Source of the DNA: Mobula birostris
Lineage: Eukaryota
Direction of reading: 5' to 3'
DNA length: 64,000 bases
NCBI RefSeq assembly: GCF_030028105.1
Contig: NC_092378.1
Location: 22,934,715-22,998,714, forward strand
Shown here: piece by piece, positions 1,074-64,000 of the stretch
Position numbering within the stretch: the first letter of the stretch is position 1
How the letters are laid out: each line of letters opens with the position of its first letter
The notes under the pieces: generated by a model
Told to the model about the DNA's origin: nothing
Databases searched by the model: none
The model's input: the letters and a program-made list of their open reading frames with translations, nothing else
Made by a program: the position numbers and the translations under genes

Positions 1074-2201
1074 ATGGCGAACTACAGCCATGCGGGTACT
1101 GGGAGCAGCGAGAACCTAATGCAGAATGTATCTCCCCTGGCGACGTTCTTCAAGCTGACATCGCTGGGGTTCATCATTGGAGTCGGCGTGCTGGGCAACC
1201 TCCTCATCTCCTTCCTGCTGGTTAAAGACAAGACCCTACACCGGGCTCCTTACTACTTCTTGCTGGATCTCTGCTCATCTGATATCATCCGTTCGGCGGT
1301 GTGCTTCCCTTTTGTGTTCCTCTCAGTGAAAAACGGCTCCTCCTGGTCCTACGGGACCCTGAGCTGCAAAGTGATCGCCTTCGTCGGGGTCCTCTCCTGC
1401 TTCCACGCCGTCTTCATGCTCTTCTGCGTGAGTGTCACCCGCTACATCGCCATCGCCCACCACCGTTTCTACTCTAAGCGGCTGACTTTCTGGACCTGCT
1501 TGGCCATCATCTGTATGGTGTGGACCCTATCGGTGGCCATGGCTTTCCCTCCAGTCTTCGACGTGGGCACTTACACCTTCATCAGGGAGGAAGAGCAGTG
1601 CATCTTTGAACACAGGTACTTCAAAGTCAACGACTCGTTGGGCTTCATGCTCATGTTCGTAGTCATCGTCCTGGCCACTCACATCGTGTATCTGAAGTTG
1701 ATCTTCTTTGTGTATGACAGGCGCAAGATGAAGCCCGTCCAACTGGTGCCGGCAGTGAGCCAGAACTGGACTTTCCACGGCCCCGGGGCCAACGGACAAG
1801 CGGCTGCCAACTGGATCGCTGGCTTTGGCCGAGGCCCAACCCCACCCACCCTATTGGGAATCAGACAAAATCCTCAGGGCCAGGGCATGAGGAGGAGGCT
1901 GCTAGTCATGGACGAGTTCAAAACGGAGAAAAGAATTGGCAGGATGTTCTACCTGATTACCTTTTTCTTCGTAGCTCTCTGGTGCCCATATCTAGTGGCT
2001 TGCTACTGGCGCGTCTTTGTGAAAGGCCCCGCTGTTCCACGTGGTTACATGACGGCTGCCGTCTGGATGACTTTTGCCCAAGCTGGAGTCAATCCGTTTA
2101 TCTGCATCTTCTCCAATAGGGAGCTAAGACGTTGTTTCAGCACCAACATCCTTTACTGTCGAAAATCCAGATTACCAAGGGAACCTTACTGCGTTATATG
2201 A
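1074..2201 (+). CDS. GPR85: SREB2 orphan class A GPCR (375 aa), single coding exon
   Basis: ATG at 1074 gives MANYSHA... (the ORF track starts at an upstream GTG). It has 7 hydrophobic segments, the SREB motifs APYYFLLDLC, SVTRY.AIAHHRFY and SQNWTFHGPGA.GQAAANW.AGFGRGPTPPTLLGIRQN, and the GPR85-type C-terminus SNRELRRCFS...RKSRLPREPYCVI. SAMTOR lies downstream, as in human. Confidence 0.93.
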   Translation: MANYSHAGTGSSENLMQNVSPLATFFKLTSLGFIIGVGVLGNLLISFLLVKDKTLHRAPYYFLLDLCSSDIIRSAVCFPFVFLSVKNGSSWSYGTLSCKVIAFVGVLSCFHAVFMLFCVSVTRYIAIAHHRFYSKRLTFWTCLAIICMVWTLSVAMAFPPVFDVGTYTFIREEEQCIFEHRYFKVNDSLGFMLMFVVIVLATHIVYLKLIFFVYDRRKMKPVQLVPAVSQNWTFHGPGANGQAAANWIAGFGRGPTPPTLLGIRQNPQGQGMRRRLLVMDEFKTEKRIGRMFYLITFFFVALWCPYLVACYWRVFVKGPAVPRGYMTAAVWMTFAQAGVNPFICIFSNRELRRCFSTNILYCRKSRLPREPYCVI

Positions 2202-4678: not shown

Positions 4679-4844
4679 AGCAACACACACAAAATGCTGG
4701 TGGAACACATCAGGCCAGGCATTATCTATAGGAAGAAGTACAGTCGATGTTTTGGGCCGACACCCTTCGTCAGGGTCTGCTGCGTTCCACCAGCATTTTG
4801 TGTGTGTTGCTTGAATTTCCAGCATCTGCAGATTTCCTGGTGTT
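4679..4844. mobile_element. Short Penelope-like fold-back insertion (two inverted pLTR 3' ends)
   Basis: Arms caacacacacaaaatgctggtggaac / gttccaccagcattttgtgtgtgttg; 14-bp TSD tgcaatatgctttg (4665-4678, 4845-4858); decayed hammerhead motif on the - strand. Confidence 0.85.
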
Positions 4845-7238
4845 TGCAATATGCTTTGTTTCTTCTTTCTCAACATTTGTTCCAATTCGAAACACTTGAT
4901 GCCTAAATATTTGGAATCGTTCATTATTCTATAATTATATTGAGTAATAATAACTCAGAGCAATAGCAAAATGATAATTAAATATCCAAGAGTTTGATTA
5001 CGTATAAGTACTTACCTTGTCTTGAACCCAGCCCATGAAATAGGCTTTGAAGTTCCACTGATAACGTATAAGCGATAATGGCAAATTAAATGGATGCTGC
5101 CTGTGAATGCTTTTTAATATGTTTATTGTGTCTGACATACATTTTATGGTATGTTATCATCTATACATTTTCAATAGATTTATGAATTATTCCTTCATGA
5201 AAACACTTCATCACTGTAATTCATAGCTGACACATTTCAATCATCGTTATATGACAAATTGCATTGTTTCACTTTTGCTGTTTAAGCAGGTTTCTCTCAA
5301 CATAATGCACTGGAGTGGAAATTGCTGCTGTTAGATCTTCTGATGAATACCAGTGCCATTATGGCTGAAAATTAATAATTAAGCAATGCAACCTTGTTAT
5401 ACTGTAAAACCTGCTCAACAAAGTGCTTATAAATATTTTTAAATCCTTTGTTCATTATATCTATTTATGTTTTAAAATGCTGTAAAATGGGAGGATATTT
5501 TAATGTTTTTTACATCTGTATTGTATATTTTCTTTGAGGAAAATAAAAATAGAAAATGCTGGAAATAATCAGCACCTGTGGATGGCATTTCAAGGACAAT
5601 GTTTTAAGTTAGAAGTATGTTATCAAACTGGAAATAGTTAAAGATGCACAGGTTTTAAGATGTAGAAAAGAGGAGGAGGACAGGGAATTGTCCACCTTGA
5701 AATTCTTCTCTTCCTCTCTGATTTCTGTTCATGTCTTTTGCTTCTTTACCTTTATGGCCTTCCCTTCTCTTTATACCTTTCATTGGTTACCCACCAAAAT
5801 CCGCTTTCACAGCTCAGATTCAGCCCACATGAATCCCTATTGAAACTCCACATCAAATACCAACAAGATATTCATTGTTTCTTAAACATTATTCTCAAAA
5901 CATCCTACAACCCATGCTTTATGTAAATGTCAGCACAAACCTGGCCATGGCCTCCCTTTGTACCAACATTGATTCTCCTTTTCTCATAACTGTCGTGATC
6001 TACTGCTTCAGTTCATCTTTCTCCTCATCTGGTGCTATAACTGACTTTCATTCCTTGCTTTCTGCACCTAAAAACCTGTGTGTTGCCAAATATACTTGGT
6101 TGTTATGAAAGGTAATTGAATTAAACATTAATTGTTTCTTGATAAAACTATGATAAAAACTTTTTTAAGAAAAAGTTTTTATTGTAGTTTTGGAAGCTAC
6201 TATCAGTTTTCGTTAAAATTGACTATGCAATTTTGTGAACTTCTGCCTTGTGATAATATTTAGGGAATTTTAAGCAAAAGCAACAAAAGTAAGTTGCAGT
6301 TTTTAATCTTTTAATTCATTGTAAACTCAGCAATGTATCTCAGTAAGAGATAGACAAGAAGTATTTGGTGAGGATATGGTTCAAGCTCCCAGCAATTCAT
6401 ATTTCAACATTCTGTTAATTATTATGTTCTGCCAAATGATCAAATGACAGCTGCAGTAAGTTAACATTTAACCTGTTCCTTGCTCTCTTCTTCATCTGGC
6501 TAAGTTGATGAAATAACAATATATCAAAGCTATCATTCTCGGCACCCAGAAAAAGATGCCAATGCTTTCCTTCACACCCAGAAAATGTGGTTTAGTCGTA
6601 GAAAGCTGATTGATATGTTGTTTAAGCAAGAAGTAGGCTTCAGAGGGTATCCAATATGAGATAATTCCATCTTTATCCAACACTCTCTATCTTTGACCCA
6701 CCATGGTAGAACACATTTTCATGTTTTTGTTATCTCAAGATTTGATACTTGAACAGGACCATGTTGGCTTTCAGAATCTTCTTTGTACTAACTTAATCTT
6801 TTTCATAAAGTTAACTGCTTCCAGGTTATCTCACTCTGTGCCTCTTTCTAGTAATTGCACTTCAAAAATAACAAAACTTTAATATGAATTAGTTGTATGT
6901 GATTTCCTTTGAAACATTCTGAAAATGTAGAAGATTTAGAAGATTCTGTTATGGATCTCTATTGTGGACTGAGAGTGGGAAGAGGGCAGGGAGAGGAGAA
7001 TCATGGTTGGGAAAAGAGGAACGGAGAGGGGAAGGAGTGGGAAACACCAGAGAAACATTCTGTAATGTTCAATAAACCCTGCATGGAGTCTCAGGGCTGG
7101 GAGTGTCTGCACCCACCCTGGCGTTCCTTCTCTTCCACCTGTCCCACCCCCTCCTGTGTGGCTCCACCCTCCCTATTCCCAACATCCTTTGCTCCCACCA
7201 GATTTACAAACTCACTCTCTGCCCCATGTTGACAAAAA

Positions 7239-8186: not shown

Positions 8187-8400
8187 AAACACTGGAAATT
8201 CTGTAGATGCTGGAAATCCTGAGAAACACACAGAAAAGTCTAGTGGAACTCAGCATGTAAGGCAGCATCAGGAACTGACATAAAGCATGAATACCTGGGG
8301 CTCATATGAGTGCCAATGGCAACACCTTTGGTTTGGTAGTCCTGATGAAGGGCAAAATGTAGTCTTTTTATTTCCCTTCATAGATATTACCTGACTTGCA
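8187..8400. mobile_element. Old Penelope-like pLTR fold-back remnant
   Basis: - strand arm (ctgtagatgctggaaatcc...ggcagcatc) plus + strand arm (tagtcctgatgaaggg...). Confidence 0.6.
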
Positions 8401-17094: not shown

Positions 17095-17228
17095 ATGATG
17101 TAGGAACTCAGCAGGCCAGGCAGCATCTATGAAAAAGAGTAAGCAGTCAACGTTTTGGGCCAAGAGTCTTCATCAGGACTAGAAAGAAAGAGGAGAAGTC
17201 AGGTTAAGAAGGTGGGGAGAGGGAAAGA
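17095..17228 (-). mobile_element. Penelope-like pLTR fragment with decayed hammerhead
   Basis: - strand reads agtcCTGATGAagactcttggcccAAAAcgttgact. Confidence 0.75.
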
Positions 17229-21289: not shown

Positions 21290-21627
21290 GCAAAACTATT
21301 TGGCTTGGCCTCAGAGAAGGGAAGGTCAGAGGAGATGAAGACCTGGCATGGATGAGAGCGAGGATCAGAGGGCAGGATGGGGTTTGTAGTGTCAGAGGAG
21401 AGGGGAGGGTTGGGGTGTTCAGGGAAGGTGGAGTGAGAAGAAGATGGAGTCTCCAAGCACCCAAGAGCTGGTGGTGGAGCCTGAGAGACATGGGATTGCA
21501 GAGTAGTGGTGGGGGGAGATGAGGAGTCAGAGTAAGAAAGTTGGGGGGAGGAAATGTTGACTGTACTCTTTTCCATAGATGCTGCCTGGCCTGCTGAGTT
21601 CCTCCAGTATCTTGTGTGTGTTGCTCA
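21290..21627. mobile_element. Penelope-like fragment (ORF N-terminus on -, pLTR end on +)
   Basis: CQVFISSDLPFSEAK resembles a PLE ORF N-terminal region; gatgctgcctggcctgctgagttcctccag is the pLTR end. Confidence 0.6.
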
Positions 21628-26665: not shown

Positions 26666-26874
26666 AAGCGCAAGAGATCCTGCAGATGCTGGAAATCCAG
26701 AGCAACTCACACAAAATGCTGGAGAGGCTCAGCAGGTCAGGCAGCATCTTCGGAAATGAATAAACAGTTGATGTTTCTGGCTGAGACCCTTCATCGGGAC
26801 TGGAAAGGAAGGAGAAAGATGCCAAAATAAAAAGGTGAGGAGAGGGTAAAGAGGAAAAGCTAGAAGGTGATAGG
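26666..26874 (-). mobile_element. Single-arm Penelope-like pLTR insertion
   Basis: 12-bp TSD tccctaataagt (26654-65, 26875-86); decayed hammerhead. Confidence 0.85.
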
Positions 26875-30150: not shown

Positions 30151-32034
30151 AACACCAAAGCAAAATTAGAGGGAAAAACAGAGGATTGGGAAGCTTTTAA
30201 AATCCTACAGAGAGCAACTAGAAGAATCATTCGAAAGGAAAAGATGAAATATGAAAGTAAGCTGGCAAACAATATCAAAGTGGATAGTAAAAGCTTTTTC
30301 AAGTGTGTAAGAAATAAAAGAGAGATAAGAGTGGATATAGGACTGCTAGAAAATGAGGCCAAAGAAATAATAATGGGGGCCAAGGAAATGGCAGATGAAC
30401 TAAATGAGTATTTTGCATTGGTCTTCACTGTGGAAGACACTAGCAGTGTGCCAGATGTTGAAGAGGGTGAGGGAAGAGAAGTGAGTGCAGTTTCTATTAC
30501 AAAAGAGAATGTGCTCAAAAAGCTGAAAGACCTAAGGGTACATAAGTCATACACCAGATGAATTGTACCTTTGGTTCTGAAAGAGGTAGCAGTAGAGATT
30601 GTGGAGGCATTATTAGTGATCTTTCAAAAATCTTTGGATTCTGGCATGGTGCCAAAGGACTGGAAAATTGCAATTGTCACTTCACTCTTTAAGAAAGGAG
30701 GAAGGCAGCGAAAAGGAAATTATAGACCAGTTAACCTGACCTCAGTGGTTGGGAAGATGTTAGAATCAATTGTTAAGGATGAGGTGATGGAGTACTTGGT
30801 GACACAGGACAAGATAGGACAAAGTCAGCATGGTTTCCCTCAGGGAAAATCTTGCCTGACAAACCTGTTGGAATTCTTTGAGAAGATGACACGTAGGATA
30901 GATAAAGGGGATGCAGTGAATGTTGTATATTTGGACTTTCAGAAGGCCTTTGGCAAGGTGCCACACATGAGGCTGCTTACCAAATTAAGAGCCCATGATA
31001 TTACAGGAAAGTTACTAGCATGGTTTGAGAATTGGTTGATTGGTAGGAGGCAGCGAGTGGGAATAAAAGGATCCTTTTCTGGTTGACTGCCAATGATTAG
31101 TGGTGCTCCACAGAGGTTGGTGTTGGGACCACTTCTTTTTTATGCTGTATATCAATGATTTAGATGATGGAGTAGGTGGCTTTGTTGCCAAGTTTGTAGA
31201 GGATACAAAGATTGGTGAAGGGACAAGTAGTGTTGAGGAAACAAGTAGGCTGTAGAAGGACTTAGACAGATTAGGAGAATGGGCAAGAGAGTGGCAAATG
31301 AAATACAACATTGGGAAAATGCATGGTCATGTACTTTGGTAGTAGAAATAAATATGCAGACTATTTTCTAAACGGGGAGAAAATCCAAAAATCTGAGTTG
31401 CAAAGGAATTTGGGAGTCCTTGTGCAGAGCACCCTAAGGGTTAACTTACAGATTAAGTCGGTTGTAAGGAAGGCAAATGCGATGTTAGCATTCATTTCAA
31501 GAGGCCTAGAATACAAGAGCAGGGATGTGATCCTGAGGCCTCTCCTGGAGTATCGTGAACAGTTTTGGGCTCTTCGACTAAGTAAGCATGTGTTGGCATT
31601 GGAGAGGGTTCAGAGGAGTTTCACAAGAATGATTCTGAAAATGAAAGGGTTATCATATGAGGAGCATTTGATAGCTCTGGGTCTGTATTCACTGGAATTT
31701 AGAAGGGTGAGGGGGGACCTCATTGAAACTTTTCGAATATTGAAAGGCCTGGACAGAGTCAATGTGGAAAGGATGTTTCCGATGGTGGGGGAAGTCCAGG
31801 ACAAGAGGGCACAGCCTCAGGATAGAGGGGTGTCCACTTAAAACAGAAATGTGGAGAAATGTCTTTAGCCAGAGGGTGGTGAATTTGTATAATTTATTAC
31901 CACTTGTATCTGTGGAGACCAGGTCATTGGGACGAAGTTGATAGGTTCTTGATTGGATATAGCATCAAAGGTTATGGGGAGAGGCTGGGGAGTGGGGCTG
32001 AGGAGGGGAGAAGAAGATCAGCCATGATTGAATG

Positions 32035-33402
32035 CAAACAACAGGAATTCTGCAGATGCTGGAAATTCAAGCAACACACATCAAAGTTGCTGGTGAACGC
32101 AGCAGGCCAGGCAGCATCTGTAGGAAGAGGTGCAGTCGACGTTTCAGGCCGAGACCCTTCATCAAGACTAACTGAAGGAAGAGTGAGTAAGGGATTTGAA
32201 AGTAGGAGGGGGAGGGGGAGATCCAAAATGATAGGAGAAGACAGGAGGGGGAGGGATAGAGCCAAGAGCTGGACAGGTGATAGGCAAAAGGGGATACGAG
32301 AGGATCATGGGACAGGAGATCCGGGAAGAAAGACAAGGAGGTGGGGGGGGGGGACCCAGAGGATGGGCAAGAGGTATATTCAGAGGGACAGAGGGAGAAA
32401 AAGGAGAGTGAGAGAAAGAATGTGTGCATAAAAATAAGTAACATATGGGGTACGGGGGTCCGCCACCTCCAACGGGATCCCACCACTAAGCACATCTTTC
32501 CCTCCCCCACCCCTGCATTCCGCAGGGATCGCTCCCTACGCAACTCCCTTGTCCATTCGTCCCCCCCCATCCCTCCCCACTGATCTCCCTCCTGGCACTT
32601 ATCCGTGTAAGCAGAACAAGTGCTACACATGCCCTTACACTTCCTCCCTTACCACCATTCAGGGCCCCAAACAGTCCTTCCAGGTGAGGCAACACTTCAC
32701 CTGTGAGTCGATTGGGGTGATATACTGCATCCGGTGCTCCCGATGTGGCCTTTTATATATTGGCGAGACCCGACGCAGACTAGGAGACCGCTTTGCTGAA
32801 CATCTATGCTCTGTCTGCCAGAGAAAGCAGGATCTCCCAGTGGCCACACATTTTAATTCCACATCCCATTCCCATTCTGACATGTCTATCCACGGCCTCC
32901 TCTACTGTAAAGATGAAGCCACACTCAGGTTGGAGGAACAACACCTTATATTCCGTCTGGGTAGCCTCCAACCTGATGGCATGAACATCCACTTCTCTAA
33001 CTTCTGCTAATGCCCCACTTCCCCCTTGTACCCCATCTGTTACTTATTTTTATGCACACATTCTTTCTCTCACTCTCCTTTTTCTCCCTCTGTCCCTCTG
33101 AATATACCTCTTGCCCATCCTCTGGGTCCCCCCCCCCCCTTGTCTTTCTTCCCGGACCTTCTGTCCCATGATCCTCTCATATCCCCTTTTGCCTATCACC
33201 TGTCCAGCTCTTGGCTCTATCCCTCCCCCTCCTGTCTTCTCCTATCATTTTGGATCTCCCCCTCCCCCTCCTACTTTCAAATCCCTTACTCACTCTTCCT
33301 TCAGTTAGTCCTGACGAAGGGTCTCGGCCTGAAACGTCGACTGCACCTCTTCCTAGAGATGTTGCCTGGCCTGCTGTGTTCACCAGCAACTTTGATGTGT
33401 GT
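32035..33402 (+). mobile_element. Penelope-like element (Neptune-like), fold-back: inverted pLTR 32035-~32457 plus GIY-YIG body and pLTR
   Basis: 15-bp TSD agccatgattgaatg (32020-34, 33403-17); ORF 32549-33010 with Cys linker CKQNKCYTC and endonuclease VIYCIRCSRCGLLYIGET..L.DRFAEH. Confidence 0.93.
33307..33342 (+). ncRNA. Minimal type I hammerhead ribozyme motif in PLE pLTR (predicted cleavage after C33338)
   Basis: AGUC-CUGACGA-AGGGUCUCGGCCU-GAAA-CG-UC-GACU: stem I AGUC/GACU, intact core, stem II hairpin, palindromic ACGU in place of stem III. Confidence 0.8.
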
Positions 33403-35224
33403 AGCCATGATTGAATGGCAGAGCAGACTCGATGGGCCAAATAGTTTAATTCTGCTCCTATGTCTTATGGTCTTATAGTCTAATTTGATTTCAATATATC
33501 TTTTTAACTGTAAAAGAAACTAATACTGCAAAAGTTTTATCTTATTTATACATGGAAAACCTATGAACAATTCAGTAAAGAATAAATATAAAAGAATCTC
33601 TCAGTATTCAGTCCTTATTTTGTTATGATAACATTATGAATGTAATATTTATAGAAATGACAGGTTGCAAAATCTCCTCAGTGGTCTGGATTAGAACTTC
33701 TCTGTGTTGTACGTGTCCTTTATGGTCTGAGGCAGACAACGTTATGACTCCTCACAGTCTCTGGTGACCAATGTGTTGACATCAAGAGAAGCTGAATACA
33801 TTATACAGGAGCAGTTACGAAGGTCACTTTTGACTTAATAAATCTTCCATGCAGGCAGTTTAAATAAGACAATGTTACAGTTAATTAAAATTAACACTAT
33901 GTTCCCAAATTTCAAAGATTGCACTAGTTTAGAAATTATGCCAAAACAGGGAAAAAAATAATTAGTGTAAATCCCTATTTCAAAACTGGAGCAGAATCTA
34001 CATAAAATATAGTTTAATTTCTGCATGGATGCTGTGAATTCACATGAACAACAGGTATAGACATACTTTAAAACATAATTTCAAGTTGTAAACTATTAAA
34101 AGAAGGAAGCAAAATTGTAAATTGATAAAAGTAAAATGTGGGTGGTGTCAAAAGGAACATTGTTCGGTTGAATCTTCCAGCTGAGGTAATGGAATCTCCC
34201 TAACTCTTTCAATTGATGCTGACCAATTCCATGACAATTTTCATTGTGCTCTGTTCTTATTTCAGACTTACAGCTGCTCTGTTTCTCACGATGGAACATA
34301 GAACACGAAGAAGCAAGCATAGTACAGGCCCTTCGGCCCACAATTTATGCTGATCTGTACAAACCTACATAATCAGTCTCACACTTCTTATAGAACATAG
34401 AGCTTTAGAAACAACACACAAAAATACTGGAGGAACTTAGCAAATCAGGCAGCATCTACAGAGAGGAATAGAATTCTTATAGATAATTATCTTTTGTTTT
34501 GATTTATGCAGCACATTCTTCAATGTAAACATATGCAAGAACATAAATGCTTTTTTAAAAGAAATGATAAAGCAGGCAATAGATGTAGGAAAGCCACAGG
34601 TAGTACCTGAAGAATGATCTATAATTTAGAAAGGATATTTGGCATTTTGCGTTTGGCCGATCCCACAATCTGGAATTGATACTTATGGTCCTTGTTGTAT
34701 GTACTTAACTGACCTGGGTGTTGAGGATCCATTTCACTGGCCCTGGGAAGCAGGAAGTGAGGTTTCGGCAGCAATAAGGCTTCAGGCAGCATACTGCAAC
34801 CGCCACAACTCCAGAACAAGCCAGACCTGGCAGGAGGAAAATTAAAGATGGTATTTTTACTTTTATCAAAACTATGATGGTGTTTCTTTTTTCATGTTTG
34901 GCATTCAAACATATTAAATGTATATTAAAATAGACAATTTTAAAATGGATTTTTAAACAACTGATAAATAATACATTGAAAAACTTACAAATCATTAAAA
35001 CATATAAGTAATGTAAAATATTTTAAAATAATAAATTACTTATTCCACAGACAGTAAATCTCCACTCAAAAGAATAGCATTTTGCTGGGGAGTTTCTGTG
35101 TCTGACTTGCCTGCTTGGATTCCAGCAATGAACAACAGGATCTGAATATATCCAGGACAGGGTCACTTCAAAACTTCTGACCACAGCCAGGAAGATATGG
35201 CTCTGGAATTGGTCCTAACTTCAT

Positions 35225-36917: not shown

Positions 36918-37368
36918 ATCTTCATATATCGTCTAGGTAGTCCCTCATATACCGTCTAGGTAGTCTCCAGCCCCTTGGTATGAACATAGAATTCTCCAAC
37001 TTCTGGTAATTCCCCCCCTCCCTTCTCCTATCCCTATGTCACTCTGCCCCCTCCCCCAGCTGCCTACCACTTCCCTCATGGTTCCGCCTCCTTCTACTAC
37101 CCATTGTGTTTTCCCCTATTCATTCTTCACCTTTCCTGCCTATCACCTCCCTGCCTCCCCCCCCCCACCCCTTTATCTTTCCCCTTACTGTTTTTTTACC
37201 TGGAACCTACCAGCCTTCTCCCTCCCACCCTCCCCCCACCTTCTTTTTAGGGCCTCTGCCCCTTCCCCCTACAGTCCTGACGAAGGGTTCTGGCCCGAAA
37301 CGTCGACTAATCATTTTCACGGATGCTGCCCGACCTGCTGAGTTGCTCCAGCGCGTTGTGAGTGTTCC
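36918..37368 (+). mobile_element. Penelope-like 3' fragment, second subfamily
   Basis: LIYRLGSLQPLGMNIEFSNFW* followed by a pLTR with a hammerhead motif. Confidence 0.85.
37273..37308 (+). ncRNA. Minimal type I hammerhead ribozyme motif (second PLE subfamily)
   Basis: AGUC-CUGACGA-A-GGGUUCUGGCCC-GAAA-CG-UC-GACU; loop differs from the 33.3-kb copy while core and stems are kept. Confidence 0.78.
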
Positions 37369-39869: not shown

Positions 39870-41084
39870 TCAACATTGAGATAGACAGTCAGCAATCATA
39901 TTATCTTTACCTTTAATGTGTTATCAAAATATTATACTCCTGTAACATCAAACTCCAATTCAGTAACCTTCTATTTTTGTTTTTCATCTTACTCAAAAAC
40001 ACTAACAGATTATGATCGGTGTAAACTGAGTGGTTTCTGAGTTGTACCAACGTACACATCAAAATGTTGTAAAGCCAAAACGGGATAATAATTCTTTTTC
40101 TATGGTTGAATAATTTCTTTGATGCAAATTAAATTTCTTAGAAAAGTAAGCTACTGGATGATCAACCTCATTACCATCATCCCTTTGAAGTAACACTGCT
40201 CCAGCAGCCTCAACACTGGCATCCACAGCTAATGAAAATGGTTTTGCAAAGTCAGGTGATTTGAGCACAGGTTGATGACATAGCATAGTTTTCAATTTAT
40301 CAAATGCCTCCTGACAAGGCTCTGTCCAAACAAACTTTGCACTTTTCTTGAAAAGATTAGTTAATAGAAGGGCAATGTCAGCAAAATTCTTGCAAAATTT
40401 ATGGTAATATCCTACTATTCCCAAGAATCTTCTGAGAGTCTTTTTACCAGTTGGAGTGGGTACCTCTAAAATTGCCTGAACAAGAGCTAACTTACTCTGA
40501 CCCACAACATAACCAAGGTAAGTCACAGTGGCATGTCCAAATTCACTTTTAGCTAAGTTAATAGTTAAATTAGCTTTTGAAAGCCTTTCAAATAGTTTCT
40601 CCACCGCAGTAATATGTGCTTCCCAAGTATTATTTCCTGTAACTAAATCATCAATATAGGCATCTGTATCTTTTAACCCATGAATCACAGAATTAATCAT
40701 TCTCTGGAAAGTTCCTGGTGCATTCTTCATCCCAAAGGAAAGAACATTATATTCATATAACCCAGATGGGGTTACAAATGCAGAAATCTCTCTACCTCTA
40801 TCCGTCAATGGAACACACCAATAACCTTTTAACAAATCAATCTTTGTAAGGAACTTTGCTTTTCCCACTTTATCCACACAATTATCCACTCTAGGGATTG
40901 GATATGCATCAGTTTTTGTCACAACATTCACCTTCCTGTAATCAGTACAAAACTGAATACTACCATCTGACTTAGGCACCATAACACACGATGAACTCCA
41001 ATTCGAATTAGAAGGTCTAATAATATTATTCTCTAACATATACTTAATTTCTTGTTCAGCAAGTTCACATTTTTCCATGTTCAT
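39870..41084 (-). pseudogene. Gmr1-like pol: reverse transcriptase and RNase H
   Basis: DYRKVN, KIDLLKGYW, FGMKNAPGTFQR, YIDD, LAVDAS and YSTIEKELL; frameshift near 40060. Confidence 0.93.
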
Positions 41085-41140
41085 CCAATATGGATGTTGC
41101 TTTACAGGTTTGGCATCTCCAACATCTATATCATGTGAAG

Positions 41141-42794
41141 CTACTGTGGTTGTTTTGGGAAAATCTGGAAATAAATCCCTATATTTAATATTAACTGCTT
41201 CATCTGCTGCCTCTGCTCTGGCTGTAACTGAGCTAATTTCTCATCAATATTTTCCAGAATTATTGAGTTTGGTAACCTGGCAGAAATAATGTTGGGTTTA
41301 AAATGAGTTTCAGGTGAATCATCCATTAAGTTCCTAGTGGGATCAGACCCATTATTATTGATCACAACAGTCATAGTAACAGACTGTTTCTCATAATGTG
41401 GTTTTATCATATTTATATGACAAATCTGTATTGGCCTTCTTCGATCTGGTGTTTTTATCACATAATCCACATCATTAACTTTAGATATAACCTCATAAGG
41501 ACCATGAAATTTAGCTTGTAAAAGGTTCATTTGCACAGGGAAAAGAACTAACTCCTTATCTCCAGACTTAAATGACCTCATTCTAGCTTCCTTATCACAG
41601 CAAGTTTTCATTTTCTCCTGAACTGATTTTAAATTTTCCCTAGCCAAGCTACAAGCTTTATGCAATCTTTCCTTAAATTTTAAAACATAATCCAACAAAT
41701 TAGTATGTACCTCTTTATTAATCCACTGTTCTTTTAACAAGGCCAAAGGTACTCTAACTCTATGCCCAAACACAAGTTCAAAAGGACTAAAACCTAGGGA
41801 TTCCTGCACTGACTCCCATACTGCAAATAGAAGTAAATGTACGCCCCCATCCCAATCATTTTCATTTTCCACACAATACGTCCTAATCATAGCTTTGAGG
41901 GTAGAGTGGAACCTCTCCAAGGCTCCTTGCAATTCTGGATGGTATGCAGATGAGATAATCTGCTTTGCTCCCGGTTTATAAACTATCTGCTGAAGCAATC
42001 CAGATATAAAATTAATACCTTGATCAGATTGTATTTCCTTAGGCAACCCAAAGTAATTAAACAATTTTATGGGCCTTTATTACAGTTTTAGCCATTATAT
42101 TCCTAAGTGGTATTGCCTCTGGAAACCTAGACACTGTGCACATGATGGTCAGCAAATATCGATGGCCAGTTTTGGTTTTTGGCAATGGGCTTACATAGTC
42201 TATAATAATTTTTGAAAATGGTTCACTAAATGTGGGAATAGGTTGCAGTGGGGCCACTGGAGTAACTTGATTAGGTTTACCCACAATTTGACAAGTATGA
42301 CACATTCTGCAAAATGTCGCCACATCTTTTCTTAAACTATGCCGGTAAAAATATTTAAAAACCTTGTTCACAGTTTTCTTCACACCTTGATGACCACCCA
42401 AAGTCATACTATGAGCCATAGTTAAGATCTTATTCCAATAAACTTCAGGAACTACTACCTGGTGAAAAACCTTCCACTCCTCACTTGCAGGAATTGTAGG
42501 TGATCTCCACTTCCTCATTAATACTCCCTTCTCGAAATAATATCCTACTGGCACTTTCCAAATTTCACTATCTGGAAGAGCTTGTTCTTTTAATTTGATA
42601 ATCTCAGGGTCTCTACTCTGCTCTGCTATCATCTCCTTCTGAGACAGAGACAAGTCTTCATGGTCAGACTTACTACAAGAACCTTGATCAAACAATGAAG
42701 ATAAGAAAGTTTCTGACACATGCTCAAAATTCAAATCCCGAGTTGAACAGTCATGGGTAACAGACCCATCCTGCACATCAACCTTTTTAGCCAT
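41141..42794 (-). pseudogene. Gmr1-like pol: integrase (upstream of RT)
   Basis: HHCC motif (H.MTLGGH...CHTC), DDE motifs IIIDYV / IQSDQG / GALERFH and a GPY module; frameshift near 42060. Confidence 0.92.
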
Positions 42795-43247
42795 AGCTCA
42801 GGTTACAACACAGGAGGAATCCATGTTAGATTCCATCTTTGGTTCCTCAGAAATGGGCTTTATTGTCAAAGGCACTTCAGGAAAAACATGTCCATCTGCT
42901 AAGTCATTTCCTAACAATAAAAAAAACATCATTCATGGGAAAACTGGTTTGTAGTCCTAATTTAACAAGTCCTGTAGCTAACCCTGAACTTAAATTTACT
43001 TTGTGCAAATGTACAGGCATAAGGGCACTCCCAACACCTCGTATATAGTTTACCTCAGCAATGTCAGACTCATCACTAAACTTTAGAACACTGTCTAACA
43101 TAAGTGAATAAGAAGCTCCAGTACCCCTAAGTACTTGTATTGGCACTGGAGTGGATCCCTCTTTCAAAGATACAAATCCTTCGGTTATAAAATGATCATA
43201 TCCCCTCTTAACTTGGTCAGACTCTGACAAAGCTTCATTTGTATTTA

Positions 43248-44294
43248 AACGCAAACAACAGGAACTCTGCAGATGCTGGAAATTCAAGCAACACACATCA
43301 AAGTTGCTGGTGAACGCAGGAGGCCAGGCAGCATCTGTAGGAAGAGGTGCAGTCGGCAGTTCAGGCCGAGACCCTTTGTCAGGACTAACTGAAGGAAGAG
43401 TGAGTAAGGGATTTGAAAGTAGGAGGGGGAGGGGGAGATCCAAAATGATAGGAGAAGCCAGGAGGGGGAGGGATAGAGCCAAGAGCTGGACAGGTGATAG
43501 GCAAAAGGGGATATGAGAGGATCATGGGACAGGAGGTCCGGGAAGAAAGACAAGGGGGGGGACCCAGAGGATGGGCAAGAGGTATATTCAGAGGGACAGA
43601 GGGAGAAAAAGGAGAGTGAGAGAAAGAATGTGTGCATAAAAATAAGTAACAGATGGGGTACGAGGGGGAGGTGGGGCCTTAGCGGAAGTTAGAGAAGTGG
43701 ACGTTCATGCCATCAGGTTGGAGGCTACCCAGACGGAATATAAGGTGTTGTTCCTCCAACCTGAGTGTGGCTTCATCTTTACAGTAGAGGAGGCCGTGGA
43801 TAGCCATGTCAGAATGGGAATGGGATGTGGAACTAAAATGTGTGGCCACTGGGAGATCCTGCTTTCTCTGGCGGACAGAGCGTAGATGTTCAGCAAAGCG
43901 GTCTCCCAGTCTGCGTCGGGTCTCGCCAATATATAGAAGTCCACATCTGACATACACACATTCTTTCTCTCACTCTCCTTTTTCTCCCTCTGTCCCTCTG
44001 AATATACCCCTTGCCCATCCTCTGGGTCCCCCCCCCTTGTCTTTCTTCCCGGACCTCCTGTCCCATGATCCTCTCGTATCCCCTTTTGCCTATCACCTGT
44101 CCAGCTCTTGGCTCTATCCCTCCCCCTCCTGTCTTCTCCTATCATTTTGGATCTCCCCCTCCCCCTCCAACTTTCAAATCCCTTACTCACTCTTCCTTCA
44201 GTTAGTCCTGATGAAGGGTCTCGGCCTGAAACGTCGACTGCACCTCTTCCTACAGGTGCTGCCTGGCCTGCTGCGTTCACCAGCAACTTTGATG
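43248..44294 (-). mobile_element. Penelope-like fold-back insertion inside the Gmr1-like element
   Basis: 14-bp TSD ttcatttgtattta (43234-47, 44295-308); - strand arm with GIY-YIG C-terminal half (to about 43947); + strand pLTR arm 43954-44294. Confidence 0.93.
44204..44239 (+). ncRNA. Minimal type I hammerhead ribozyme motif in PLE pLTR
   Basis: AGUC-CUGAUGA-AGGGUCUCGGCCU-GAAA-CG-UC-GACU. Confidence 0.8.
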
Positions 44295-45620
44295 TTCATT
44301 TGTATTTATTGAACCCTGTGGATTTACAGGTGTTTCAATAAGTTGCACACAAGCATCTGGGACTGCTTCCTTCTCCTTCTTCTTCAGTCGGAAACAGTTA
44401 GCTATTACGTGACCAGGTTTCTTACAATAATTACAAATAGGACCAAAATGTCTTTCCTTCACATGTTTCCCTTCATCCTTACCTTTCTCACTAACTTCTG
44501 ATTTAATTTCTGGTTTACCTAGACTCTCTGTGCTATTTTTCCTTTTAAAAGTTCTACCTGGAAGAAATTTACTCTTATGGATTAAAGCATACTCATCTGC
44601 TAATTTAGCAGACTCATGCAATGTAGCAGTGTCCCTCTCATTTAAGTATGTCCTTACTTCAACAGGGATGCTCCTTTTAAATTCCTCCAATAAAATCAAC
44701 TCTATTAATTTATTATACTCCCCATTCACATTTTTAGAGGAAACCCATCTCTCTAAACACGCAGATTTATTGTAGGCAAATTCCACGTAAGTTTTTTCCA
44801 CGGATTTCTTCAAATTTCTGAATCTTTCTCTATAAGTTTCCATAACCAGTTCATACGCTTTCAGTATATGCTGCTTCACAATATCATAATCAAGTGCTTG
44901 GTCAGCAGTTAAAGCTGTATAGACTTGTTGTGCCTTACCTCTAATTACACTTTGCAACATCACTGGCCATTTCTCTTTCGGCCACCTTGAAATCAGAGCA
45001 ATAGATTCAAAATGTTGGAACTATTTGTCCACTTCTGTTTTATTAAATGAAGGAGCCAATATAACTTTCCGACTAGCAACAAACTGTTTCCTAGAACCAG
45101 AGGACTGACTCTCCATCTTTAATTTCTCTATCACTAGTTCAAACTCCCTCTTTTTATCTGCTTCTCTAGCTTCGAATTCCTTCTGTTTATTTGTAGCTTC
45201 TAACCGACTTTGTTCCAAATCAGCTTCTAACTTTTTCTGTTTTAAGTCAGCTTCTACTCTAGCTTTTCTAATGCTACCTGTTTCATGCACAACTGGATCA
45301 CTGCTTTACTTACAGGGAACCTACCTAACTCCGCTTCATCAAAAACTCCCGAATTTATATAGTGTTCCGCGATTTTCCTCCGAATTACCAGCTTTGTTGT
45401 AACCTTCGAAATTCCTTTAAGGTCCAACCTTCTAGCAATTTCGGATACATCATCCTTTTTCACCTTCCTTAATAACTCCAGGTCTGGCAATGCAATAAAC
45501 TCTTCAATATTCATTGCTGCCAAATACTACCTACAGACCAATCAAACAGAAGAATTGGGTATTTCCCTTTTCCAAATCAGATTGATAATTAAGCAAGCAC
45601 TTAAGCTCAAAATCGGAACA

Positions 45621-52223: not shown

Positions 52224-52438
52224 CGCAAACACGAGGAAATCTGCAGATGCAGGAATTTCAAGCAACACACATAAAAGTTGCTGGTGAGCGCAGCAGGCCA
52301 GGCAGCATCTCTAGGAAGAGGTACAGTCGACGTTTCGGACCGAGACATGACGAAGGGTCTCGGCCCGGAACGTCGACTGTACCTCTTCCTAGAGATGCTG
52401 CCTGGCCTGCTGCGTTCACCAGCAACTGTTATGTGTGT
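52224..52438. mobile_element. Short Penelope-like fold-back insertion
   Basis: Near-perfect inverted arms of about 80 bp joined inside the hammerhead motif (52346/52347); 13-bp TSD tgatggatctaaa (52211-23, 52439-51). Confidence 0.92.
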
Positions 52439-52572
52439 TGATGGATCTAAATCCCGACAGCAGCATGATAGTCATGAATGTTGGAAGTAATCAAGAAGGC
52501 AACTCATCACCAACTTCTCCAGAAATTAGGAGTGGGCAATAAATGATGGCCTAGCCAGTGACGCCCAGATCC

Positions 52573-54400: not shown

Positions 54401-54595
54401 TACACACAGAATGCTGGAGGATCTCAGCAGGCCAGGCGCATTTATGGAAAAGAGTCAACCTGTCCTGATGAAGGGTCTCGGCCCGAAATGGCAACTTTAC
54501 TCTTTTCCATTGATGCTGCCTGGCCTGTTGAGTTCTTCCAGTATTTTTTATTACATTGATTTCCAGCATCTGCAGATTTTCTCTTGTTTGTGAAT
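54401..54595. mobile_element. Short Penelope-like fold-back insertion upstream of SAMTOR
   Basis: TSD gcctagttta (54391-400, 54596-605); inverted pLTR ends; CTGATGA...GAAA core with a decayed cleavage site. Confidence 0.85.
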
Positions 54596-57837: not shown

Positions 57838-59165
57838 GGATCATTCTAGAGTGTAGGAGAATGAGGGGAGATTTGATAAGAGGTATGTAATATTTAGAGG
57901 GGTATAGATAGCATAAATGCAAGCAGACTTTTTCCACTGAGGGTGGTTGAGACTAGAACTGGAGGTCATGGATTAAGGGTGAAAGGTGAAATGTTTAATC
58001 ATATAACCGTATAACAATTACAGCACTGAAACAGGCCATCTCGGCCCTTCTAGTCTGTGCCAAACTCTTACTCTCACCTAGTCCCACTGACTTGCACTCA
58101 GCGCATAACCATCCATTCATTTCCTGTCCATATAGCTATCGAATTTAACTTTAAATGACAACATCGAACCTGCCTCAACCACTTCTGCTGGAAGCTCGTT
58201 CCACACAGCTACCACTCTCTGAGTAAAGAAGTTCCCCCTCATGCCCTTTTTTTGCCCTTTAACTCTCAACTCATGTCCTTTTGTTTGAATCTCACCCATT
58301 CTCAATGGAAAAAGCCTATCCACGTCAACTCTATCACTCCCCCTCGTAATTTTAAATACCTTTATTAAGTCCCCCCTCAACTTTCTATGCTCTAAAGAAT
58401 AAAGACCCAACTTGTTCAACCTTTCTCTGTAACTTAGGTGATGAAACCCAGGTAACATTCTAGTAAATCTTCTCTGTGCTCTCTCAATTTTGTTGACATC
58501 TTTCCTATAATTCGGTGACCAGAACTGTACACAATACTCCAAATTTGGCCTTACCAATGCCTTGTACAATTTCAACATTCCATCCCAACTCCTATACTCA
58601 ATGCTCTGATTTATAAAGGCCAGCATACCAAAAGCTTTCTTCACCATCCTATCCACATGAGATTCCACCTTCAGGGAACTATGCACCATTATTCCTAGAT
58701 CCCTCTGTTCTGCATTCTTCAATGCCCTACCAAAATGTAGCACCTCACATTTATCAGCATTAAACTCTATCTGCCATCTTTCAGCCCACTCTTCTAACGG
58801 GACTAAATCTCTCTGCAAGCTTTGAAAACCTACTTCGTTATCCACAGCTCCAGCTATCTTAGTATCATCTGCATATTTACTAATCCAATTTACCACCCTC
58901 TCATCCAGATCATTAATATGTATGACATACAACATTATCCACCAGGGATAAGGAGTTTAAGGGGAACATGAGAGAGAACTTATTCACTCAGAGGGTGGTG
59001 AGAGTGTGGAACAAGCTGCCAGTGGAAGTGGTTGATGTGGGTTTCATTTCATCATTTAAGAGAAGGTTAGATAAGTATAGGCAGGACTAAGCAGAGTAGT
59101 AGTTTGGTATGGTCCAGATGGGCTGAAGGGCCTGTTTCTGTGCTGTAGTACTCGATGACTCTATG
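57838..59165 (+). mobile_element. CR1 3' end interrupted by a second CR1
   Basis: SLECRRMRGDL...TRTGGHGLRVKGE is broken at about 57997 and resumes at about 58953. Confidence 0.8.
57998..58940 (-). mobile_element. Young CR1 LINE 3' part (RT C-terminus)
   Basis: ORF 58117-58935 with KYADDTK, WQIEFNADKC and LVRPNLEYCVQFWSP; (GTTATATG)-like tail. Confidence 0.92.
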
Positions 59166-61469: not shown

Positions 61470-62362
61470 CATTGGAGGATCAACAACTTTTAAGTTCCTT
61501 GGTGTTATTATTTCAGAGGACTTGTTCTGGGCCCAGCACATAAGTACAATAATGAAGAAAGCATGGCTGCACCTCTACTACTTCAGGAGTTTATGAAGAT
61601 TCAGCATTACATCTGAAACTTTGACAAACCTCTGTAGACATGGGGTAGAGAGTATATTGATTGGCTGCATCAATCAATGCCTGGTATGGAAACCCCAATG
61701 CCCTTGAATGGAAAATGCTACAGAAAGTAGTGAATACGGCCCAGTCTATCATGGGTAAAGCCCTCCCAACCATTGAGCACACCTACATGGAGCGTTGCTA
61801 CAGGAAAGGAGCATCGATCGGCAGGGACCCCCACCCCCCAGGTCATGCTGTCTTCTTGCTGCTGCCATCAGGAAGGTGGTACAGGTGCCCTAGAACTCAC
61901 TATCAGGTTCTTGAACCAAAGAGGATAATATCACTGCCCCATCACTGAACTGTTCCCACAAACTATGGACTGTAGTCCTGACAGAGGGTCTCAGCTCAAA
62001 ACGTCGACTGTACCTTTTCTTATAAATGCTGCCTGGCCTGCTGCGTTCCACCAGCATTTTGTGTATGTTGCTTGAATTTCCAGCATCTGCGGATTTCCTC
62101 GTGTTTGCGTTTTTAGACTCACTTTCAAAGACTCTTTGTCTCAAGTACGTGATATTTATTTATTGTTTATGATTATTTACTTATTTTTGTATTTGCACAG
62201 TCTTTTGCACACTGGTTGAATGTCCAAATTGGCACAATCTTTCATTGATTCCATTATGGTTATTATTCTATTGATTTATTGAATATGCCCACAAGAAACT
62301 GGATCTCAGAGTTGTACATGGTACTATAGATGTACTTTGATAAATTTACTTTGAACTTTGAT
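61470..62362 (+). mobile_element. L2/Rex1-type LINE 3' part with a nested PLE pLTR (61973-62112)
   Basis: LQKVVNTAQSIMGKALPTIE, LLPSGR and tail actttgaactttga; the PLE piece starts at the hammerhead stem. Confidence 0.85.
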
Positions 62363-63119: not shown

Positions 63120-63648
63120 TCTTTTTGGATTCCAGACCTAATCAGTTCCCCTCTACCACCACTCTGCTCCGTCTAGCGGAATTAGTCCTTACTCTTAATA
63201 ATTTCTCCTTTGGCTCCTCCCACTTCCTTCAAACTAAAGGTGTAGCTATGGGCACCCGTATGAGTCCTAGCTATGCCTGCCTTTTTGTTGGCTTTGTGGA
63301 ACAATCTATGTTCCGTGCCCATTCTGGTATCTGTCCCCCACTTTTCCTTCGCTACATCGACGACTGCATTGGCGCTGCTTCCTGCACGCATGCAGAGCTC
63401 ATTGACTTTATTAACTTTGCCTCCAGCTTTCACCCTGCCCTCAAGCTTACCTGGTCCATTTCTGACACCTCCCTTCCCTTTCTAGATCTTTCTGTGTCTG
63501 TCTCTGGAGACAGCTTATCCACTGATGTCTACTATAAGCCTACTGACTCTCACAGCTATCTGGACTATTCCTCTTCTCACCTTGTCTCTTGCAAAAACGC
63601 CATCCCCTTCTCGCAATTCCTCCGTCTCTGCCGCATCTGCTCTCAGGA
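63120..63648 (+). mobile_element. Penelope-like reverse transcriptase fragment
   Basis: NNFSF....FLQTKGVAMGT.MSPSYACLFV, LRYIDD, LPFLDL, TDVYYKPTDSHSYLDYSSSH and IPFSQFLRL.RICS. Confidence 0.93.
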
Positions 63649-64000
63649 AACACACATCAAAGTTGCTGGTGAATGCAGCAGGCCAGGCAGCATCTGTAGG
63701 AAGAGGTGCAGTCGACGTTTCAGGCCGAGACCCTTCGTCAGGACTAACTGAAGGAAGAGTGAGTAAGGGATTTGAAAGTTGGAGGGGGAGGGGGAGATCC
63801 AAAATGATAGGAGAAGACAGGAGGTGGAGGGATGGAGCCAAGAGCTGGACAGGTGATTGGCAAAAGGGGATACGAGAGGATCATGGGACAGGAGGTCCGG
63901 GAAGAAAGACAAGGGGGGGGGGACCCAGAGGATGGGCAAGAGGTATATTCAGAGGGACAGAGGGAGAAAAAGGAGAGTGAGAGAAAGAATGTGTGCATAA
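63649..64000 (-). mobile_element. Penelope-like pLTR arm interrupting the RT fragment (runs off the window)
   Basis: Near-identical to the pLTRs at 32-33 and 43-44 kb; begins at the shortened (...TGTGTGT) terminus. Confidence 0.9.
63710..63745 (-). ncRNA. Minimal type I hammerhead ribozyme motif in PLE pLTR
   Basis: - strand AGUC-CUGACGA-AGGGUCUCGGCCU-GAAA-CG-UC-GACU. Confidence 0.8.

Follow-up and report, generated by a model that had tools for sequence, protein, structure and literature searches.

Minimal hammerhead ribozymes (min-HHRs) have been reported in the Xena, Poseidon and Neptune PLEs (Penelope-like elements) of fishes (Cervera and de la Pena, 2014; PMC4209133), and PLE hammerheads are described as having low in vitro rates and a dependence on protein. 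For example, uncleaved RNA was the main in vitro substrate of PAc, a Poseidon element of Anolis, and cleavage was protein-assisted (Frangieh et al., 2024; PMC11167929). Published hammerhead counts, made with descriptors other than ours, are ~9,000 in Xenopus and ~4,000 in the coelacanth (PMC4209133), and 126,247 in the axolotl (PMC7229834). A CX2-5CxxC linker between reverse transcriptase (RT) and endonuclease is a mark of Neptune and Nematis (PMC8557442), and a tail on one side only of PLE insertions is already known in qualitative terms (PMC3846280; PMC8557442). In addition, a 2026 preprint describes hammerhead retrozymes in one chondrichthyan (bioRxiv 10.64898/2026.07.22.740005). The role of the PLE hammerhead, the starts of PLE RNAs and the regeneration of a promoter-bearing tandem are presented as open questions in several of these accounts (PMC8557442; PMC2377424; PMC11167929). 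Because the ribozyme class is already known from fish Neptune and Poseidon PLEs (PMC4209133), the motif described below is unsurprising in itself, and the ray family that carries it is a further member of that class.

The window analysed here is a stretch of 64,000 nucleotides from Mobula birostris (NC_092378.1, positions 22,934,715 to 22,998,714 of the forward strand), and coordinates refer to this stretch. Hammerhead positions follow the standard numbering scheme. Signed distances are counted from the predicted cut, 0 being the first base after C17, and the motif then spans -32..+3. The window contains the following PLE features.

33307..33342, plus strand: minimal type I hammerhead, putatively cleaved, with the predicted cut between 33338 and 33339
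32459..33405, plus strand: sense arm of a 5'-truncated Neptune-type PLE (-878..+66), with Cys linker, GIY-YIG, 3' UTR, hammerhead and untailed end
32036..32458, minus strand: inverted arm of the same insertion (-313..+101), with tailed end and hammerhead at 32169-32134 (C3>U)
32020..32034 (left copy) and 33403-33417 (right copy), plus strand: 15-bp target-site duplication (TSD) flanking the insertion 32036-33405
37273..37308, plus strand: intact subfamily B hammerhead with a different loop II and G-C at 10.1-11.1
43253..44295: second inverted insertion, with a tailed arm 43947-43253 (minus; hammerhead broken at 43386-43351) and an untailed arm 43952-44295 (plus; hammerhead intact at 44204-44239)
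63120..64000: rearranged copy, with an RT fragment 63120-63648 (plus) and then an antisense arm from 63643 past the window edge; hammerhead intact at 63745-63710 (minus)
52227..52440: mini inverted insertion, arms starting inside the hammerhead at -18 and -27, one end tailed and one untailed, TSD of ~11 bp
4680..4845: older mini inverted insertion, one arm beginning at -29
61973..62106, plus strand: solo short copy (-33..+101), running from the hammerhead 5' edge to the tail end, core decayed
54401..54592: older mini inverted insertion with a decayed core, its sense arm beginning at -31
26677..26813, minus strand: older-subfamily terminus, decayed hammerhead at 26801-26766
17104..17181, minus strand: older-subfamily terminus, decayed hammerhead at 17180-17145
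21551..21625, plus strand: terminus fragment starting at -8, with the 3' part of the motif alone
8337..8400 (end approximate), plus strand: old copy with an internal deletion, retaining the motif's 5' half

The motif at 33307 (+) belongs to the inverted insertion 32036-33405 and is very probably a PLE hammerhead. It consists of a 4-bp stem I, the CUGANGA core, an extra A, a 4-bp stem II with a tetraloop, and GAAA, and an ACGU palindrome replaces stem III. Its sequence is exactly as first given, and the minimal type I fold, the extra A and the palindrome that had been proposed for it all agree with the sequence comparison. Core positions C3 U4 G5 A6 N7 G8 A9, G12 A13 A14, A15.1-U16.1 and H17 are all present, and the motif lies on the sense strand of the element, 3' of a GIY-YIG frame (PF01541, E 3.7e-5). 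The core is likewise intact at the three other sites listed as such in the preliminary description, 37273 (+), 44204 (+) and 63745-63710 (-). Against these four core-intact copies, 200 doublet shuffles gave 0.0 on average, and the shuffles together with reversed-pattern controls rule out a chance origin. Three of the four lie in arms of inverted insertions; none has a direct-repeat partner inside its own insertion.

All ten sites previously described as decayed or partial carry remnants of the motif. Eight of them (32134, 43351, 52347, 54462, 61973, 26767, 17142 and 4742) match 29-34 of its 36 nt and have core lesions, such as C3>U at 32134 and G8>A plus A15.1>C at 43351. The site at 8337 retains the 5' half alone and that at 21551 the 3' part alone. 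A scan of the window with the Rfam covariance models returned no hammerhead family at E <= 1, and a PDB sequence search gave no match. The Rfam match to MIR6140 (40 bits, gathering threshold 140) was rejected as below threshold; the sequence is really the inverted mini-insertion at 4680..4845. Tandem Repeats Finder detected no retrozyme array in the window, and the one close motif pair that was checked (L155) consists of two separate fragments.

Several other features surround these insertions. A single-exon GPR85 (SREB2)-like receptor gene at 1077-2201 (+) shares 94% identity with a skate-named cluster and 83% with a catshark cluster, which makes a batoid host likely. Gypsy-type LTR remnants with a SCAN-like gag, whose integrase frames stand before RT/RNase H on the minus strand, occupy 40059-45020 (-); the PLE insertion 43253-44295 lies within this element and breaks it. 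LINE RT fragments (RVT_1), which we take to be CR1-like, are found at 30562-31841 and 58117-58956, and the PLE insertion at 32036 adjoins the end of the former.

The carrier of the motif is confirmed as a young, recently amplified Neptune-type PLE with the motif in its terminal repeat. Searching the genome at the protein level for the RT fragment of the window gave 56,496 candidates; 150 were scored and 12 long-frame loci examined. The full-length copy L041 comprises, in order, an inverted 208-bp arm, a partial tandem, a hammerhead, an ORF, a 3' UTR and a second hammerhead. Its hammerheads stand in direct repeat, 3,513 bp apart (positions 2380 and 5893), and the presence of the motif in both terminal repeats bears out the pLTR context first suggested for it; the 5' hammerhead has one change in the palindrome. 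An uninterrupted ORF of 1,016 aa starts at +138, and its product matches RVT_1 and GIY-YIG, the RT being followed by a C-terminal GIY-YIG in the one ORF. DKG and YIDD are both present, as is a CX4CxxC linker at residue 883 that recurs in 114 of 121 proteins of the homologue set. Its nearest named homologue is an uncharacterised bamboo shark protein (70%). The linker and motifs would place the element in the Neptune clade, and the Neptune architecture of partial tandem, inverted 5' copy and optional 30-40 bp tail is present. Copies that reach the ORF leader are rare (328 exact matches, compared with 55,330 for the 3' anchor).

Copies of the motif are extremely numerous in this genome of 4.01 Gb. 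Exact matches to the 34-nt family pattern number 30,596 genome-wide (control 0), and matches to an intact-core pattern (core + 13 nt + GAAACGUC) number 73,261 (control 41), or ~18 per Mb. Unselected stretches contain 7 intact cores in 210 kb and the window 4 in 64 kb, so that the window is richer than average; terminal-repeat remnants of all ages give 74 matches in 274 kb of unselected DNA. The very large ribozyme load proposed in the preliminary description is therefore real as DNA copy number, but does not extend to an active load: because most copies are lone 5'-truncated or inverted fragments, activity is putative.

Conservation was assessed in 310 unique arms, of which 271 fall into five groups (225, 7, 16, 19 and 4) and 39 are unassigned; 266 passed the anchor filter. 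The majority letters of the five groups agree in 29 of 36 motif columns, as against 2 of 30 upstream columns and 1 of 13 columns of the downstream spacer (ungapped), the spacer contrast being partly by construction because the groups were assigned partly on the spacer. The core is thus better conserved than its flanks and, as had been suggested, the subfamilies differ in the stem II loop while core and stems are kept. Disagreement is confined to seven columns: N7, a pair of positions in loop II, 11.1 (G-C versus G-U), the final base of stem I and, in group E with its 4 copies only, two ties. Gapped identity in three pairs of natural copies is 0.86-0.97 for the motif, 0.60-0.70 upstream, 0.40-0.53 in the spacer and 0.78-0.87 in the downstream box; since sequence from +19 onward is also kept, conservation is not peculiar to the motif. 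The ACGU palindrome is present in all groups, and stem pairing changes inside the Neptune-type family are limited to G-C/G-U.

Other families preserve the same design. A genome search allowing longer spacers produced 1,815 matches (control 702) and led to families with an unrelated stem II of 6-7 bp that keep the core, the extra nucleotide and ACGU. The extra nucleotide between 9 and 10.1 is A in the Neptune-type family and A, U or G in the others. The stems of three other families differ in sequence and mostly pair, with broken pairs in several old copies. One older family (L301, L308, L318 and L322), presumably Poseidon-like as judged from its motifs, has a 7-bp stem II, 418 exact anchor matches and the same inverted and tailed architecture as the Neptune-type family; its hammerhead follows the end of the endonuclease without a Cys linker. 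At least two further minimal hammerhead families, with other stems I and II and an extra U or G, are represented by L224, L229, L231 and L239.

The ends of inserted copies provide a record of how they were made. They were read in 100 arms for which the +19..+51 anchor was the sole selection criterion (the first 100 of 55,330, all within the first 5.5 Mb of one contig). The 3' ends fall at +54..+77 in 46 arms and at +92..+104 in 54, so insertions end ~66 or ~101 nt past the cut site. A long stem-loop is predicted in region +17..+85 (L041:5921-6025), with the +66 end in its 3' arm, the tail directly after it and its paired boxes conserved between subfamilies. At all loci sampled, 65 of 69 inverted pairs join one tailed and one untailed arm; the other four have two tailed arms, and three of these run on into the ORF leader. 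TSDs of at least 8 nt flank 54 of the 69 pairs, compared with 4 of 200 controls, with a mode of 13-14. Identical inversion junctions were observed in independent insertions (L119/L124 at -319/-368; L120/L131 at -231/-492), which may reflect microhomology hotspots or self-propagating palindromic derivatives.

The 5' ends concentrate at the upstream edge of the hammerhead. Of these 100 arms, 21 begin at -35..-28, 14 at -26..-4, 9 at -100..-39 and only 2 within 3 nt of the cut, where no pile-up was seen; 7 ran past the sampled stretch. Ends at the cleavage site, the signature put forward for the RNA in the preliminary description, are thus not a feature of the genomic copies. The edge-starting arms, 7 solos and 14 arms of inverted pairs, account for 21 of the 50 ends within -100..+19 (p=2e-12 versus a uniform distribution over that interval). 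The first samples had been chosen on the motif; the peak is present after resampling on downstream anchors and is not a sampling artefact. In older subfamilies, sampled as the first 40 arms of 9,243, 10 of 40 ends lie at -34..-25 and 2 of 40 no more than 3 nt from the cut. In the Poseidon-like family, where stem I starts near -39, 9 of 41 arms (first 41 of 418) start at -47..-34 and none within 3 nt of the cut; three share flanks, leaving 7 of 39 independent, and two arms left out of the count (L294 and L317) appear by eye to start near -39.

Sequences upstream of this edge suggest promoter function in one family and are ambiguous in the other. A TATA-like box is found in 10 of 13 long Poseidon-like copies, 39-40 nt before C3 in all 7 measured, with CCAAT boxes upstream. 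Given the usual TATA-to-start spacing of 30-31 nt, this geometry predicts a start at about -43. The Neptune-type family has a weak AT-rich stretch 30 nt upstream and no canonical TATA, and its upstream sequence resembles a splice acceptor in every subfamily (pyrimidine tract and YAG ending at -31). Short solos adjoin the TSD with 0-8 extra nt and without a common upstream exon, and no captured upstream exon was found in 44 short arms and 30 loci. The base before A-32 shows none of the G excess expected from a copied cap (hand count over 100 rows: G 28, A 30, C 42). The 5' ends of leader-bearing copies are spread (6 of 33 at -38..-23, 13 of 33 at +7..+99); 20 of 33 extend 5' of the cut and 9 of 33 continue into the upstream repeat. 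Some of these copies end only 140-410 nt in, which indicates that priming in the 5'-repeat context occurs. Six leader-bearing short copies (L197, L199, L215, L216, L220 and L221) end at +261..+274, possibly at a third RT start site within the 5' part of the ORF.

Predicted folds do not favour the catalytic form. As a monomer, the motif is predicted to form an inactive rod (-10.0 versus -6.0 kcal/mol for the hammerhead) that pairs the core with the cut region and has its base exactly at -32..+3. Two copies are predicted to form an antiparallel duplex (-28.3 kcal/mol) in preference to a double hammerhead (-9.5 kcal/mol), in a folding model that ignores tertiary contacts. These inactive folds fit the reported low in vitro rates and protein dependence. 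In addition, few of the 73,000 motifs are expected to cleave, because most have no same-strand partner or would be locked in inverted-repeat hairpins if transcribed. It is moderately likely that some genuine hammerhead cleavage takes place in vivo. Joins exactly at the cut, where a 6-bp palindrome lies, were seen in 5 of the first 50 short hairpins and could be cleaved ends or the product of palindrome microhomology.

Taken together, the account that we consider probable is that of a type I hammerhead in a recent Neptune-type PLE, likely placed at the RNA start, likely cutting only inefficiently as a dimer and leaving most templates uncut. That the transcript begins with the hammerhead is itself a reading of the end distribution towards which we lean only slightly. 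The upstream part of the terminal repeat would act as promoter, and the RNA would begin at about -32, span the ORF and extend beyond the second hammerhead, with ACGU pairing the two hammerheads. One nicked DNA strand, or both, would prime RT at +66 or +101 on either repeat. Priming on the 3' repeat would give long 5'-truncated copies, whereas priming on the 5' repeat would run off at the RNA 5' end after 100-135 nt and give the abundant short edge-starting copies, which would resemble integrated strong-stop cDNA. Inverted insertions would arise from two priming events joined head-to-head. Dimeric cleavage would be occasional and likely protein-assisted, with templates remaining mostly uncleaved.

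A broader, tentative extension, which we hold to be somewhat less likely than its negation, is that in vertebrates the pLTR of Neptune and Poseidon PLEs has a U3|R-like layout, with the promoter upstream, the hammerhead at +1 and strong-stop-like cDNA produced by priming 100-135 nt in. If so, integration of this cDNA would account for tens of thousands of 100-135 bp inserts headed by a hammerhead, and cDNA moved to the 3' repeat would regenerate the partial tandem and its promoter. The ribozyme would then be a decapping or template-destroying switch and not the maker of unit-length templates.

Other explanations of the edge peak compete with an RNA start. A 5'-to-3' exonuclease halting, or RT being released, at the edge of a folded or protein-bound hairpin would place ends at -32 because the motif folds as a single rod with its base at exactly that position. 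The end distribution, sharp upstream and tailing into the motif (the 14 arms at -26..-4), the lack of a cap-G signal and the joining of 5 of 50 short hairpins by stem I microhomology agree with this. However, the antisense cDNA folds weakly (-2.6 kcal/mol, DNA parameters), for which reason a cDNA snap-back hairpin was also rejected as the cause of the edge ends. RT stalling would be expected on the 3' side of the structure (+4), where few ends lie, and the Poseidon-like TATA geometry independently predicts a start at the same place; we regard this explanation as unlikely. The edge could instead be a 3' splice site, the copied RNAs being splicing products or intermediates, as in Drosophila virilis Penelope, in which the start is at nt 371, ~120 nt upstream, and the intron 416-491 ends at helix I. 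The acceptor-like sequence ending at -31 in every subfamily matches this helix I/intron coincidence reported for Penelope (PMC4209133). Yet TSD-flanked solos lack an upstream exon, several solos keep A-32 without microhomology (L110, L163, L170, L171 and L175), no GT..AG skip ends at the edge among the contig joints listed (15 of 162), and the Poseidon-like pile-up occurs without a pyrimidine tract, all of which makes splicing a very improbable origin of the peak.

Two further alternatives concern the ribozyme itself. In the proposal of Cervera and de la Pena (2014; PMC4209133), efficient cleavage would yield unit-length RNA that is circularised as the main template for rolling-circle RT, and short copies would arise by another route. 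Two motifs in direct repeat one unit apart, and the 9 of 33 leader-bearing copies that continue into the upstream repeat, are what a circle predicts, and a religated circle would likewise leave no ends at the cut. A circle without a 5' end cannot produce the -32 peak, however; leader-bearing copies are rare relative to those with the 3' anchor, and PAc core mutants insert normally in vitro (PMC11167929). Circular templates are accordingly quite unlikely as the main route. The opposite possibility is that catalysis is vestigial and that the motif is maintained for promoter function or protein binding. The inactive predicted folds would suit such a role, as would the report that 8 of 9 Xenopus dimers are uncleaved in vitro (bioRxiv 2026.07.22.740005) and the success of Naiad PLEs without a hammerhead (PMC8557442). 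In contrast, the catalytic positions and the palindrome are all kept across families with unrelated stems, and the variable sites (N7, loop II and the 11.1 wobble) form the pattern expected from selection on a ribozyme fold. Loss of catalysis is for these reasons highly doubtful, and the inefficient, start-associated hammerhead described above is retained as the preferred reading.

Comparison with described systems places the ray family within known diversity and also sets it apart. It shares with the min-HHRs of Cervera and de la Pena (2014; PMC4209133) the absence of helix III, the palindromic segment 15.1-16.1, an additional nucleotide between 9 and 10.1, a G at position 10.1, a short helix I, a single motif in each pLTR, a predominance of solo copies derived from truncated elements, and opposite-strand pairs. 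In contrast to them, stem II has only 4 bp here and the commonest subfamily has G-U at 10.1-11.1. In the text and one supplement file of that study, no cartilaginous fish and no 5'-end pile-up were found, and the literature searched, which was mainly open-access, yielded no description of this Neptune-type family or of copies whose 5' ends lie at the edge of the hammerhead. The single ORF with RT, CX2-5CxxC linker and C-terminal GIY-YIG, as well as the partial tandems, the inverted 5' copy and the 30-40 bp tail at one end only, are those of the Neptune clade (Arkhipova, 2006, as given in Craig et al., 2021; PMC8557442). Animal non-LTR retrozymes (PMC7229834; bioRxiv 10.64898/2026.07.22.740005) similarly have type I hammerheads, a relationship to PLEs and very high copy numbers, but they are short tandem non-coding repeats, whereas the ray copies are dispersed fragments of an autonomous element.

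The closest functional parallel is PAc (PMC11167929), in which two RT start sites bound the tail downstream of the hammerhead, both strands are extended, uncleaved RNA is used and no RNA ends lie at the cut. The proposed model agrees with these in vitro data in its two RT starts, uncleaved substrate and protein-assisted cleavage. The two elements differ in clade; the ray family has TSDs of 13-14 bp, and the PAc ORF starts inside the hammerhead, whereas the first ATG here lies 138 nt past the cut. The 5'-end pattern, with its edge peak in both PLE clades and hardly any ends at the cut, bears on the role of the hammerhead; together with the tail asymmetry of 65 of 69 inverted pairs it offers specific points for testing, and the unbroken natural ORF of L041 is available for in vitro assay. 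The value of the ray family lies in sample size, each TSD-flanked insertion recording an RT start and stop. Its 73,261 intact cores, compared with ~9,000 hammerheads in Xenopus and ~4,000 in the coelacanth as counted with different descriptors (PMC4209133), give a density of intact cores far above the published counts for Xenopus, coelacanth and axolotl.
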